From a virus (lineage: Duplodnaviria; Caudoviricetes): 28,737 nucleotides of DNA. The position numbers were made by a program, and so were the translations under genes. The DNA lies in IMG/VR virus record IMGVR_UViG_3300025018_000448, positions 1 to 28,737 of that record; one strand, written 5' to 3'. This document shows positions 6,418-10,807 of the stretch, piece by piece. How positions within the stretch are numbered: the stretch's first letter is position 1; each line of letters starts with the position of its first letter. A model generated the notes under the pieces. That model ran no database searches and had not been told where the DNA came from. It worked only from the letters and a program-made list of their open reading frames with translations.

Positions 6418-7383
6418 ATGAACACTGCGAGAATGTTACAAGAAGAAAAGGAACTTGAGAGTAAACTGTTTGGGACCCCCGAGTCAGCTGAGACCAAGGC
6501 TGATGAGGCTCCCGTTACCAACCCCGAAGAGCAGAGTGCACCTGTTGATACTACAGCGGTCACTGTAGATACTGATAAGCCACTTGAGCATGAGGGTACG
6601 GAAGAGAGAGCTGAGGACTGGAAGTTACGCTACACTAACCTACGTAATAGTAGGGACGTTAAGCTATACAATGCTCAGAAAGCATTAGCTAATTCTGAGA
6701 ACACAGTTAGTATGCTTCAACAGAAGATCTCCGAGCTCATGAGTAGTACCACAAGAGTAGAAGAGGACATCTTTAAGGATGCCTTCACTGAGGAAGAGAG
6801 AGAGGCCTTAGGGCCTACAGCTATTGCAGCAATGCAGAAGACAGCTAAGCTAGCAGCAGATGCAAAGACCTTTAATATCCAGAAGGAACTAAAAGAAGTT
6901 CGGGATAGGGCCCACGCAGATGTCAAAGCTAATGCAGCTAATGCAGCTCAAAGAGCTTATGAAACTTTCCTTGGACGACTAGGGTCTATAGTACCTGATT
7001 ATGCTTCTATAGATACTGACCCTCGGTTTAAGCAATTCATGAATACTCAGGATATTGACGGTGCTGCTCGTATCCAGAACTTCACTATAGCAGAATCTCA
7101 TGGTGATGTAGCTACAGTAGCTAGACACATGTTAGACTTTAAATATTCTCTTAATCCTAAGGCTCAGGCTAAGGCTTCCCTTGATTCTAAGATTGGTCCA
7201 ACAGGTGACGCTACGAAAGTAGTTGTAAACAATAAGGAAACTAATGGTGATCTTACAATGCGTGAGGTCAACGAACACTATAGAAAATTCGCTAGAGGAG
7301 GCTATAAGGGTAGACAATCAGAGTACTTAGCAATGGAGGCCCGGATTGATGCCGCCGCATCTAGCGGTAAAATAAGAGGTTAA
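6418..7383 (+). CDS. putative capsid scaffolding protein
   Basis: Acidic disordered N-terminus, coiled coil, C-terminal 'IDAAASSGKIRG'; lies between portal and capsid. Confidence 0.75.
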   Translation: MNTARMLQEEKELESKLFGTPESAETKADEAPVTNPEEQSAPVDTTAVTVDTDKPLEHEGTEERAEDWKLRYTNLRNSRDVKLYNAQKALANSENTVSMLQQKISELMSSTTRVEEDIFKDAFTEEEREALGPTAIAAMQKTAKLAADAKTFNIQKELKEVRDRAHADVKANAANAAQRAYETFLGRLGSIVPDYASIDTDPRFKQFMNTQDIDGAARIQNFTIAESHGDVATVARHMLDFKYSLNPKAQAKASLDSKIGPTGDATKVVVNNKETNGDLTMREVNEHYRKFARGGYKGRQSEYLAMEARIDAAASSGKIRG

Positions 7384-7387
7384 TAAA

Positions 7388-10300
7388 ATGGCTTTACGTC
7401 CAGAAACAGCGCTTTACCACAATGCAGTAGACAACACCTACTTGGATCCGGTTAATTATATCCCGGAGTTGTACTCTAAGAAGGTTTTAAGGAAGAATTA
7501 GAAGTTCCTTTTTAAATCCCTACTGAAGAACGGGGTAAGACCCGAAGGAAGGTAATTCACTCTCATGAGGCGAATATGTTCAATACAAATGATCTAGGCT
7601 ATAAGCTTAGATGTGGAAGTATCAAGAAGCACTCAGAGCAACTTAATAAATATGTTGCTGGCTTTATAGATTCAGATGGGTGTATATCCTTGAAGTATAA
7701 GGAGATGACTACTGGTAGGTATGGGGTGTATGTACAGTTTGCACTCTGCCAATCTGAGAGCAATGATGAGGGGCACGAGCTTCTACTAGCTTTACAAAAG
7801 CATTATAATGTAGGACAAGTATACATAGAGAGAGAGTTCTCTAAATCTGTAGCAGCTAGGTGGGTGGTGTCAGGTAAGGAAGCTGAGAAGTTTCTAAGTG
7901 TAATACACAAGCACCTGCTAGTTAAGTACACACATCTAGGTAATATCTTATGGATAACCAGGGAGTTACGGGGCTATACTATCAGAGATGCTACTGATCT
8001 TAAAGATTACATGAAGTGCTCTAGGGCTTCATCTAGGTGGAAGAGAGAACCTAAGCATATATCAAAAGCCTGGTTAGCTGGTTTCATAGATGGAGATGGG
8101 CACTATAGAGTTCGTATAGGTAGACAACGTAGATACGGGGATGGTTCAGTGGCTACAGTCAACGAGCTTAAACTCTTTCTCGGTACCCAAGAGTCTGATG
8201 TATTTATTTTAAGGCAACTCTGTAAGGACTATAGAGGATCCTTAAGTAAGCGAACTGATGGCTTATGGATGTGGCAGTTAGCCCTGGGAAAGCAGAGTAG
8301 AACTAAGGCTATAGACCTACTAACGTCCCTAAGGAAGTATACTTGTATTACTAAGAAGTACAATGCTATTCTAAGAGCTTTAGCATTCCATGAACAATAC
8401 CACCTGCAGAGACTAAGTGTTGGGGAAGTCGATAAGATTATGCGATAGTCCGATAAGCTTCTATGAGTCTGCTATATTTCAAGATATTTGTAACACTGAC
8501 TTAACCTAATAGGTCACTTGAGGAGAGATCCTCTCGATTAAACTATGTGAATTGCTGGAACCCTGAGATGGGAATCAGCAGCGAAGCTTAGGTGGCGACA
8601 CCTTTGAACGTTCAACGACTAACCCTCGATACTCTTTTCAGAGTGTGTAATAGGGACACGAGCGCATAGCCCCAGAGATGGGTGATGATATAGTCTGATC
8701 TTATGGGAATACAACCATAAGTGCTAGTGTATTAAAAGGCTAGCAATAACGTAATGATGAGGGTGAGATTAAAGGTGCTGGTGCTAAGGTACATATTCGT
8801 AAGACTCCAGAGATCACTGTTAACCCGTACACAATCGGACAGACTCTGACTTATGAGGTACCTGAGAAAGATTCCACTGAGCTTGTAATTGACCAAGCTT
8901 TCTATACTGCCTTCCAGGTTGAAGATGTAGAGAAAGCTCAGGCTGATATCGAGCTTGTTAATATGTTTGCTAAGGATGCTGGAGAGCGAGTAAAGATTGC
9001 TGTCTCCAGAGAGGTACTTGCCTATATGTCCCTGCAGCCAGCTGCAGCTAACCAAGGTAACGTAGCCGGTGCTATCAGTGGTGCTATTAAGCTTGGTGCT
9101 ATTGCCGGTGTTGGTGCCTCTGTTCTTATTGATAGTACTAATGCAGTCAATAAGATCGTAGAACTTAATCAGGCTCTGGATGAACAGAACATCCCAAGTG
9201 AAGGGCGTTGGATTGCACTTCCTGCCTGGTACTGTGCCCTTCTTAAGGTTGGTGACTTGAGAAGATCCGACATTACCGGAGATAGTACTGGTGTGATTCG
9301 TAACGGACTCATTGGTCAAGTTGATCGTACTATGATCTACATGACTAATGGTCTTCATACTGCCACTGACGGTGATGCTGCTACTAGCACCTACGTCCTT
9401 TGTGGTACAAAAGAAGCTTCTAGCTTCGCTGCCCAGATCACTAAGACTGATACGCTGAAGATTCAGAATGCCTTCGGTGAGTCGGATGACTACGAGACTC
9501 TTCTCGCAGCCTAGTGCTCACTTTAAACTACTTTAAATAACGGGGTAAAACCCGAGGCAATGTATATAATTCCTCTTAGGAGCGTAATTAATGATATTCG
9601 ATACTAACACCTTAGGGTACAAGTTAGTTACAGGACAACTAAAGAAACACTCAGAACAACTTAATAAGTATGTAGCCGGTCTTCTGGATACAGATGGCTG
9701 GATAGGTTTTGAGTTCACACAAGGTAAAGCTTACGTTCGTATGGGTCTCCGACAAGCTGCAACAGTTGATGGAGACTTTCAGATGCTAAGAGCTGTACAG
9801 AAGCACTACCAACTAGGTACGATTTCCTACGGTTTCCAAGCAAATGATGTATCCTTCTGTTCCTGGAGACTTAGCACTAAACATGCTAACATGCTCTTCG
9901 GTTTAGTAGGGAAACATATGCGGATTAAACAGTCACACTTTAAGAACATACTAGAGTTTGATACTACGCAGGGAGACTTAAAAGAGTTCTCCAGGCTAAG
10001 TAGAGAAAACACTGGTTGGCTGAAGAGACCTAAGCACTTATCTTACGCGTATGTAGCTGGACTTCTTGATGGTGATGGCTGCTACAGAATCCGTAAGAAG
10101 GAAGGTAAGATTACTACAATGTGTGTTAAGGCAGCTATCAACGAAGAGTTCATACTCTTAAAGCTGCAAGAAGACTTTGGTGGTTCCATCAACGATCATT
10201 CAGAAGGTATGAAGTGCTGGCGTAGAGGCTTAGGTAAAGGGCATAAAGCCTTCTCTATTCCATTCCTTAAGAGCATGAGGAAGTATTCATGCATAGAAGG

Positions 10301-10504
10301 GAAGTACCTAAAGATCAATGAGATGTTAAGATATCTACAAGCCGCAGAGACTAAACAAGTAGAGATCACCCCAGTGGTGATCTAAGTGATAGTCCAACCG
10401 TACTAGCTACGGTTGACTGGCGTTCGCTCTTTGTCTATGGGCGTGCTGTCCCACAGCCTACTGCACTTGCTGCTCTTATCTGCAAGCCTGGTACTGCTGT
10501 GTAA
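7388..10504 (+). CDS. major capsid protein, spliced: join(7388..7494,8458..8501,8757..9482,10416..10504), 321 aa
   Basis: Exons of 107+44+726+89 = 966 nt join in frame: MALRPETALYHNAVDNTYLDPVNYIPELYSKKVLRN|FYESAIFQDICNTDY|EGEIKGAGAKVHIRKTPEIT...KIQNAFGEY|WRSLFVYGRAVPQPTALAALICKPGTAV*. The IPE.YS..FY..NTDYEGEI..G..V.I and FG...R.L.VYG patterns are those I recall from P22-coat-like (HK97-fold) capsids. ORF-track 8963..9514 is part of exon 3. Confidence 0.92.
7495..8457 (+). mobile_element. group I intron 1 (963 nt) in the capsid gene; reduced core, carries a LAGLIDADG gene
   Basis: IGS TAGAAGTTCCTT (7499-7510) is the exact reverse complement of the ligated junction AAGGAA|CTTCTA. P3 7517-7522/8421-8426; P4 CGGG 7531-7534/CCCG 7541-7544; P6 AGG/CCT; J6/7-P7 GCAGAGACTA; P7' TAGTC 8446-8450; terminal G 8457. 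Confidence 0.88.
7576..8448 (+). CDS. intron-encoded two-motif LAGLIDADG homing endonuclease / possible maturase
   Basis: Motifs YVAGFIDSDG and WLAGFIDGDG; lies in L6 of intron 1 with its 3' end overlapping P6'-P7-P3'-P8-P7'. Confidence 0.92.
   Translation: MFNTNDLGYKLRCGSIKKHSEQLNKYVAGFIDSDGCISLKYKEMTTGRYGVYVQFALCQSESNDEGHELLLALQKHYNVGQVYIEREFSKSVAARWVVSGKEAEKFLSVIHKHLLVKYTHLGNILWITRELRGYTIRDATDLKDYMKCSRASSRWKREPKHISKAWLAGFIDGDGHYRVRIGRQRRYGDGSVATVNELKLFLGTQESDVFILRQLCKDYRGSLSKRTDGLWMWQLALGKQSRTKAIDLLTSLRKYTCITKKYNAILRALAFHEQYHLQRLSVGEVDKIMR
8502..8756 (+). ncRNA. group I intron 2 (255 nt), canonical, ORF-less, subgroup IA-like
   Basis: 5' exon ends in U (TGACT) pairing with GGTCA; P2 with GAGA tetraloop; P3 CTATGTG/CGCATAG; P AATTGCTGGAA, Q AATCAGCAG, R GTTCAACGACTA, S GATATAGTCTG; extra helices between P7 and P3'; two P9 hairpins; ends in G 8756; removal restores D-Y-E-G-E-I-K. 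Confidence 0.95.
9483..10415 (+). mobile_element. group I intron 3 (933 nt) in the capsid gene; reduced core, carries a LAGLIDADG gene
   Basis: Exon GTGAGT pairs with GCTCAC (9516-9521; U.G at the splice site); P10 CTAGT/ACTGG; P3 CTACTT/AAGTAG; P4 CGGG/CCCG; P6 GGC/GCC; GCAGAGACTA...TAGTC; P8 AGATCACC/GGTGATCT; P9 AACCGTA/TACGGTT; terminal G 10415. Confidence 0.92.
9591..10385 (+). CDS. intron-encoded two-motif LAGLIDADG homing endonuclease / possible maturase
   Basis: Motifs YVAGLLDTDG and YVAGLLDGDG; clearly paralogous to 7576..8448 (shared LGYKL..G..KKHSEQLNKYVAG and PKH.S.A..AG..DGDG). Confidence 0.92.
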   Translation: MIFDTNTLGYKLVTGQLKKHSEQLNKYVAGLLDTDGWIGFEFTQGKAYVRMGLRQAATVDGDFQMLRAVQKHYQLGTISYGFQANDVSFCSWRLSTKHANMLFGLVGKHMRIKQSHFKNILEFDTTQGDLKEFSRLSRENTGWLKRPKHLSYAYVAGLLDGDGCYRIRKKEGKITTMCVKAAINEEFILLKLQEDFGGSINDHSEGMKCWRRGLGKGHKAFSIPFLKSMRKYSCIEGKYLKINEMLRYLQAAETKQVEITPVVI

Positions 10505-10643: not shown

Positions 10644-10729
10644 GGATGTCGTGAGCATTGGTAAGCTTCAGCGGGCTGTAACCCCGTAGCCTTCGGGCTG
10701 TCTAGGTTCGAATCCTAGGGCATCCACCA
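10644..10729 (+). tRNA. tRNA-Tyr(GTA)
   Basis: Acceptor GGATGTC/GGCATCC, anticodon arm GCGGG-CTGTAAC-CCCGT, long variable arm AGCC-TTCG-GGCT, T arm CTAGG-TTCGAAT-CCTAG, A73, encoded CCA. Confidence 0.88.
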
Positions 10730-10732
10730 TAA

Positions 10733-10807
10733 GGCACATAAGGATATGTGGAGATCTTCTAGCCTTGTAAGCTAGCTAACAGTGTTCGACTCACTGATGT
10801 GCCTCCA
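10733..10807 (+). tRNA. tRNA with TGT (Thr) anticodon and atypical, Cys-like acceptor stem
   Basis: Acceptor GGCACAT/ATGTGCC, D stem GGAT/ATCT, anticodon arm CTAGC-CTTGTAA-GCTAG, T arm CAGTG-TTCGACT-CACTG, U73, encoded CCA. Confidence 0.82.

Follow-up and report, generated by a model that had tools for sequence, protein, structure and literature searches.

A small-cored group I intron in a phage capsid gene with a predicted A-U pair in place of U·G at its 5′ splice site

The major capsid gene of a Caudoviricetes virus (IMG/VR record IMGVR_UViG_3300025018_000448; "the window" denotes the whole 28,737-nt stretch analyzed) contains three group I introns, the first of which appears to lack the U·G pair expected at a group I 5′ splice site. 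The best explanation overall, which we consider probable, is that intron 1 works as a mobile group I intron and is cut after A7494, at a site picked by position. The exon junction itself, 7494|8458, is very likely to be correct as placed here (Table 1). From the DNA of intron 1 and of five relatives at the same site, we infer that an A-U pair occupies the 5′ splice site.

The window is a linear virus record with an estimated completeness of 50%, in which terminase and SU10-type portal and adaptor genes are also present. We assigned the gene that begins at 7388 using its third exon as a query, which returned 630 homologs, the best 120 of which were examined. PF25209 is present in these homologs, which also match annotated major capsid proteins, and the best of them matches annotated capsid proteins of GenBank phages. 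Among the GenBank phages searched, the nearest named capsids, those of Rhizobium phages, are 39% identical. When the four exons are joined and all introns removed, the result is an open, gap-free frame of 321 amino acids, 287 of which are identical to those of the uninterrupted homolog P0001. Directly 3′ of the capsid gene, at 10644-10807, lie genes for tRNA-Tyr and tRNA-Thr, neither of which was listed by the Rfam search.

Table 1. Features of the capsid gene and its introns, in window coordinates
Feature	Position	Strand	Remarks
Major capsid protein exon 1	7388..7494	+	ends with the first two bases of an Asn codon
P1 exon strand	7489..7494	+	last exon base A7494 pairs with U7505
Intron 1	7495..8457	+	963 nt; predicted group I core without P2, P5 or P9; terminal G8457; from family alignment
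Internal guide	7499..7510	+	7505-7510 pairs with exon 1 (P1, 6 bp); 7499-7504 pairs with exon 2 (P10, 6 bp)
P3 5′ strand	7518..7523	+	pairs with 8419-8424; one U-U mismatch in the window's copy
P4	7531..7544	+	4 bp; 6-nt closing loop at 7535-7540; no J4/5 or P5; from family alignment
P6/P6a 5′ strands	7546..7553	+	pair with 8399-8405; ORF lies in the P6 extension
Two-motif LAGLIDADG endonuclease ORF	7576..8448	+	290 aa; PF00961, E 3.6e-17
J6/7, P7 5′ strand (8409-8415), P3′, P8, J8/7, P7 3′ strand	8406..8451	+	from sequence and family alignment
Tail	8452..8457	+	five bases plus terminal G; no room for P9
Capsid exon 2	8458..8501	+	begins with the third base of the Asn codon
Intron 2	8502..8756	+	full-size, ORF-less group I intron with U·G; RF00028, 60.5 bits
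Capsid exon 3	8757..9482	+	homologs carry PF25209
Intron 3	9483..10415	+	P5-less family; canonical U·G; has P9; internal control for intron 1
LAGLIDADG ORF of intron 3	9591-10385	+	protein domain match
Capsid exon 4	10416..10504	+	includes stop codon; open joined frame

Only intron 2, among the three introns in this gene, was found by Rfam. It is polymorphic: run X1 contains contigs with a precise 8501-to-8757 joint (depth 13.3) as well as contigs with the intron (depth 6.7), and the joint is also present in run X3. This DNA joint independently confirms a boundary of intron 2 that had been read by eye on the same principles as the junctions placed below.

To place the ends of intron 1, we scanned donors at 7478-7501 against acceptors at 8440-8469 for combinations that keep the frame and leave an intron ending in G. 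Only 7494|8458 restores the peptide KKVLRNFYE. The six-residue spacer that results is present in 61/61 parsed capsid homologs (among the best 120 of 630), and with a looser pattern, which parsed 98 of the 120, the junction residue was Asn in 89 and Lys in four. The guide pairs with the ligated exons at 12 of 12 positions, all Watson-Crick, and a search of the 28.7-kb window for the reverse complement of these 12 nt (7489-7494 plus 8458-8463) finds a single copy, at 7499-7510. Given the base composition, the chance of such a match is ~7e-8 at any one site, 2e-6 over the first 25 positions of the intron and 0.004 when both strands of the whole window are counted. Within the guide, 7499-7501 forms an in-frame stop for the unspliced RNA. 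No contig joint lacking intron 1 was found in four DNA sequencing runs, which has no bearing either way, and folding the two halves of the intron alone gave no significant z-score.

To find relatives, we performed motif scans, which yielded 32 distinct introns with both halves, once four copies of the window (L262, L285, L288 and L289) had been set aside; matches to the motif that lacked a 3′ half (the L250 group, L251, L253, L287 and L295) were left out of the counts. Ends were placed by a rule that presupposes a terminal G, accepts a capsid-profile score no more than 6 bits below the best and at least five P1 pairs, and assumes no type of pair at the splice site. With this rule, ends were resolved for 30 of the 32 introns, the two others being L189a, which has no G-ending junction with a 5-bp P1, and L278, where the contig ends. 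Twenty-four of the resolved introns, at 11 sites, have U·G. The remaining six, all at the site of intron 1, have A-U: the window's intron 1, L149/L150, L165/L260, L284, L286 and L296a. Other searches added no members. A pattern for the P4 hairpin alone matched 120 stretches of viral contigs (L005-L124, left out of all counts), and those inspected were coding or unrelated. The family motif had two matches in prokaryote genomes, neither with a 3′ half; the intron 1 endonuclease, used as a query, had no relative in viral contigs; and a 119-nt intron compared with GenBank phages gave no match beyond one 34-base piece (E 0.4).

The six A-U introns share the layout of the window's copy. Across them, P1 positions -4, -5 and -6 and P10 positions +1 and +4 have changed on both sides of the helix, while position -1 stays A-U in all six. 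The guide base that faces the first base of exon 2 is G with C in four introns and A with U in two. Since this base, G7504 in the window, tracks the exon 2 base, it is not a conserved or displaced wobble G. When the flanks were used to find the best uninterrupted protein match, the junction residue was Asn for 6/6 introns (29 of 30 of the top-five matches). L293 lacks an intron at this site, matches the L284 exons at 58 of 61 bases and has a predicted Asn codon (AAC) at the junction. The cut after A7494 opposite U7505 and the in-frame end at G8457, both proposed in the first-pass annotation, are supported by the guide pairing, the restored peptide in a gap-free protein and the same layout in five relatives.

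A cut one base downstream, after G7495 opposite G7504, would give Lys at the junction and an intron ending in C8458. It keeps the frame and yields a 321-residue protein with 286/321 identities, and Lys does occur among the homologs (4/98). Protein score alone ranked the Asn junction first in five of the six A-U introns; the exception is L284, where non-G ends that give Lys scored slightly higher (58.7 versus 57.1). The first intron base is opposite a like purine in every A-U intron (G·G in four, A·A in two, never U), so that +1 equals its facing guide base in 6/6, as this reading would have it. Yet the Lys junction needs a terminal pyrimidine in all six introns although a G precedes it in all six, and has A as the facing guide base in two. 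Asn is the residue both in the most similar uninterrupted proteins and in the intron-less allele that matches at 58/61 bases, and a Lys junction would not supply a U·G pair either. Guide spacing also argues against it. Measured to the P3/P4 anchor, 6/6 A-U introns have the U of this pair 23 nt upstream, and the wobble G of the U·G introns lies at 22 (12 introns), 23 (six) or 19-20 (six); a distance of 24, where G7504 would sit, occurs in none of the 24. We therefore consider the Lys junction very improbable. The same measurements qualify the earlier claim that the guide spacing of intron 1 agrees with that of intron 3: U7505 is 23 nt from the anchor and the intron 3 wobble G is 22 nt, a discrepancy of one base that nonetheless falls within the family range.

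A canonical U·G site after U7498 (with G7504) or after T7488, the U-ending junctions that the annotation had named as fatal to its own model, is barely tenable. Folding of the window's copy gives the first of these some support, as the U7498·G7504 hairpin is as stable as the A7494-U7505 P1 hairpin (-4.3 versus -4.2 kcal/mol) and the A-U pair has a probability of 0.25 in a 34-nt fragment. Elsewhere the balance is different: the A-U hairpin is the minimum-energy fold in five of the six introns, with pair probabilities of 0.76-0.97, while in the five other than the window's even the best U·G fold falls short by 2.8-5.6 kcal/mol, and the position equivalent to U7498 is C in L260. The protein also disfavors both sites, as each alters the spacer that is fixed in the parsed homologs. 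Joining U7498 to the exon that follows G8457 brings a stop at 39 aa. With G8452 as the last intron base instead, three residues are added and the terminal G directly abuts P7, where the family minimum is three intervening bases. A cut after T7488 removes two residues. U7498·G7504 may be a minor, unproductive site in the window's copy.

An assembly error at 7494-7495 or 8457-8458, or a defunct intron within a disrupted capsid gene, has been largely refuted and retains hardly any probability. The record's partial completeness would allow a second capsid gene elsewhere, but the four exons of this one join into an open frame. A run X1 contig (depth 29.6) that spans 6800-8488 has no listed difference at either junction; because X1 is possibly the source sample, its agreement with the window cannot count as independent. 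The 5′ junction is the same in a second assembly (L285), and six distinct introns from separate assemblies share one layout with compensatory changes.

The core of intron 1 contains the P3-P7 pseudoknot, with P4, P6 and P8, that we used as the test of a group I core. Three usual features are missing: U·G at the predicted 5′ site, P5 with its J4/5-J5/4 loop, and P9. There is also no room for P2. Judged by its sequence, intron 1 appears to have a group I catalytic core and to work like a group I intron that has shed U·G, P5 and P9. The P3 register was set by covariation, with five pairs formed in 30/30 introns through 2-6 pair types and one pair formed in 28/30; in P6/P6a, six pairs formed in 30/30 through 2-4 pair types, and both sets of counts are inflated by kinship among the sequences. 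P4 is closed by a 5-6-nt loop in 30/30 introns, a property selected for by the motif, and conservation of its letters is partly circular, as they were part of the search pattern. P7 contains the bulged A8410 and the guanosine-site pair G8411-C8450; its letters also served as search pattern, so P7 conservation carries less weight. P8 spans ~8427-8438 (placed by eye), followed by J8/7 at 8439-8445 and the P7 3′ strand at 8446-8451. The intron ends in G in 6/6 A-U members, terminal G being part of the end-placing rule. P9 is absent from all six, in which the tail is 4-6 nt, and from 8/24 U·G introns, in which it is 3-5 nt. Searches with RF00028 gave no hit to introns 1 and 3 at E values up to 1, and none to the seven ORF-less family members in the loci scanned.

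How such a core might have arisen is suggested by nine P5-bearing phage relatives (for example, L156, L167 and L171), which presumably resemble IB4/IA3-type introns. Unlike the P5-less family, they have J4/5, P5 and long P9 regions, yet they share with it both the P3-P4-P6-P7 context and the two A-rich bases that precede the P4 3′ strand. This common context suggests that J4/5 and P5 were deleted and that the P4 loop is the remnant, with the J5/4 adenines retained in it.

The ORF in intron 1 is predicted to encode an intact homing endonuclease, with a 290-aa open frame and two motifs. It crosses P6′, P7, P3′ and P8 before ending within the 3′ strand of P7, so that its last ~16 codons (8399-8448) overlap the catalytic core. 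Its likely ribosome-binding site lies in a short hairpin at 7560-7578 that recurs in relatives (by eye) and may limit translation. In each of the 30 introns, an in-frame stop falls no more than 10 codons from the 5′ site.

In a tree of cores, a branch with weak support (73/88; 72% of bootstrap trees) has all six A-U introns on the same side. We therefore counted them as about one event, and they probably share one origin. The path from the window's intron 1 to four of the other five is ~0.5 changes per column, which points to an old A-U state. If so, an A-U lineage has been kept through substantial divergence inside a capsid gene, and the U·G rule would be one that can be dropped. L296 contains both states in one gene: an A-U intron (L296a) and a U·G intron (L296b), 119 and 121 nt long, with the same P4-P6-P7 stretch, make a near-matched natural pair. 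L261 (near 1986-2958) contains a family member one base downstream of the intron 1 site, with the same guide register, U·G and P9. A direct one-base slide from L261 to A-U was considered and is unsupported, as the core tree groups L261, weakly, with other introns.

The first-pass annotation had also offered a cause: loss of the J4/5 wobble receptor relaxed splice-site identity, which would widen the range of sites that the family can invade. In its broad form, any pair could then serve at the 5′ site. Parts of this stand. The P5 and J4/5 strand present in the nine relatives of the same context is missing, A-U does occur in the P5-less family, and P5 loss may have been a precondition for it. 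The receptor, however, has not just disappeared. Immediately 5′ of the P4 3′ strand, at what we take to be the position of Tetrahymena A207, 30/30 introns have A. A207 is the base to which the wobble G bonds, through its amine, in Tetrahymena (PMC13692252). The P4 loop has one sequence in 23/24 U·G members, with a close variant in the other, and is probably a compressed wobble receptor in these introns. It departs from this pattern in five of the six A-U members, the exception being L296a; in the window's intron 1, for example, loop position 5 is G, where 24/24 U·G members have A. J8/7 position 3 likewise is U in 6/6 A-U members and A in 24/24 U·G members. The loop correlation (Fisher p 4e-5), like that in J8/7, is confounded by kinship. 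The loop pattern fits a compact receptor that is kept with the wobble and relaxed without it, a correlation that does not test cause.

The splice site was not freed by losing P5, since U·G is kept by 24 of the 30 resolved P5-less members, intron 3 among them, at 11 other capsid sites; eight of these 24 also lack P9. Nor is a wider range of invadable sites apparent, as all six A-U members occupy one site and are probably one lineage. With the loop nearly invariant wherever U·G is kept, and its last A present in every intron, we consider it quite unlikely that receptor loss by itself opened the splice site to other pairs.

We instead propose that intron 1 belongs to a miniaturized phage family without P2 and P5, in a branch that has also lost P9. 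Its removal would proceed by the usual two guanosine-dependent transesterifications, with the 5′ cut after A7494, the A of a Watson-Crick A-U pair that ends P1. That group I chemistry dependent on guanosine operates at this site is, in our judgment, quite likely. With no wobble G to recognize, the 5′ site would be chosen by position, through the fixed distance from guide to P3. P1 would extend no further than the A-U pair, as the base at +1 is opposite a like purine, and the long P10 (5-9 bp) would align the 3′ exon. A U at +1 opposite G would form a wobble and shift the cut one base downstream, to the layout seen in L261. The A-U branch keeps the last A of the P4 loop while the preceding base drifts, and the U at J8/7 position 3 may compensate. 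We give this combination of a ruler and a relaxed receptor about an even chance.

Weaker docking of P1 might be offset in vivo by a LAGLIDADG maturase, acting in cis or supplied by a neighboring intron. Such protein help is plausible, because every resolved ORF-less member (9/9) lies in a gene that also holds an ORF-bearing one. According to PMC13692252, the amine of G22 in Tetrahymena is worth at least 2 kcal/mol of substrate binding, and a Watson-Crick G·C pair lowers docking ~100-fold. These costs make protein-free activity of the A-U introns doubtful, and we would not expect, though we consider it possible, that the ORF-less A-U members (119 and 138 nt) self-splice after A without P2, P5, P9 or U·G, cut by distance alone.

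The same junction could also be processed by other chemistry, either hydrolysis of the 5′ bond or strict dependence on a maturase complex, in which case the RNA alone would be no ribozyme. A core without P2, P5 and P9, the missing wobble amine and the constant company of ORF-bearing introns are what such a reading would predict. That company may merely reflect the clustering of introns in these genes, however, and the P7 guanosine-site pair and terminal G have been kept, P7 being a search motif. We regard this as a possible but minority explanation beside the guanosine-dependent pathway proposed above.

C-G and C·A pairs are known as exceptions at group I 5′ splice sites. According to PMC4227781, the 5′ exon ends virtually always in U and exceptionally in C, and the group B IStron BcISt1 of Bacillus cereus splices after G, as determined by RT-PCR, one base before a retained U·G. 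A non-U 5′ splice site thus has precedent in group B IStrons, as that text describes them. Like these, the introns described here are natural bacterial group I introns with a 5′ exon that does not end in U and a non-Watson-Crick position after the cut. Unlike them, they have no conserved U·G near the site, where the IStrons keep one shifted by one base, and their 5′ exon is predicted to end in A; they are P5-less, with a LAGLIDADG ORF or no ORF, where the IStrons, as reported there, combine an IA2-type intron with an IS element. The two marks of group B IStrons, an IS607-type fusion and a U·G shifted to +1, are both absent: the ORF is LAGLIDADG and +1 is G or A. Introns with a C-ending 5′ exon (PMC4227781) also depart naturally from U·G but keep a pyrimidine.

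The A-U introns share with canonical group I introns (Tetrahymena, Azoarcus, phage; RF00028) a P1/P10 guide, P3, P4, P6, P7 and P8, a bulged A and G-C pair in P7, a terminal G and an endonuclease ORF in a peripheral loop; they differ in having A-U for U·G and in lacking P2, P5 and P9. They also differ in size, as the ORF-less family members are 116-191 nt long and the Azoarcus intron is 205 nt (PMC3895272). A Tetrahymena G·C+ pair mimics the wobble at low pH (PMC13692252), unlike the A-U pair, which would act without wobble mimicry. Our literature search, which lay mostly outside subscription journals and supplements, found no A-U 5′ site and no P5-less family.

In a 2025 group I intron database (PMC11835236), U·G is taken to be completely conserved, and 16,427 candidates were rejected for not starting with U; the need for U is also described as a key limit of trans-splicing ribozymes (PMC13692252). 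If the ORF-less A-U introns do self-splice, they would be natural ribozymes little over half the length of Azoarcus, and would offer a compact, guide-programmable splicing ribozyme without the U requirement. Taken more widely, the family is one of very small group I introns missed by the standard model.

Cores of 116-121 nt that are complete for group I but have no P2, P5 or P9 are present at L296 1018-1301 (minus), L189 2127-2244, L293 1151-1266 (minus), L294 995-1114 and L147 1995-2115 (minus). They are clustered, and the exons that separate them are as short as ~13 nt. A further ORF-less member of the family, 170 nt long, at L189 1907-2077 and also in L139 and six more loci, ends in A at its best U·G junction (P1 8 bp, P10 5 bp), and the G-ending alternative has a poor P1. 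Full-size group I introns with an endonuclease-like ORF apparently on the opposite strand, as judged by eye, were seen in viral contigs at L126, L130, L135, L136, L145, L162, L174, L185, L196, L197, L235, L237, L241 and L242.
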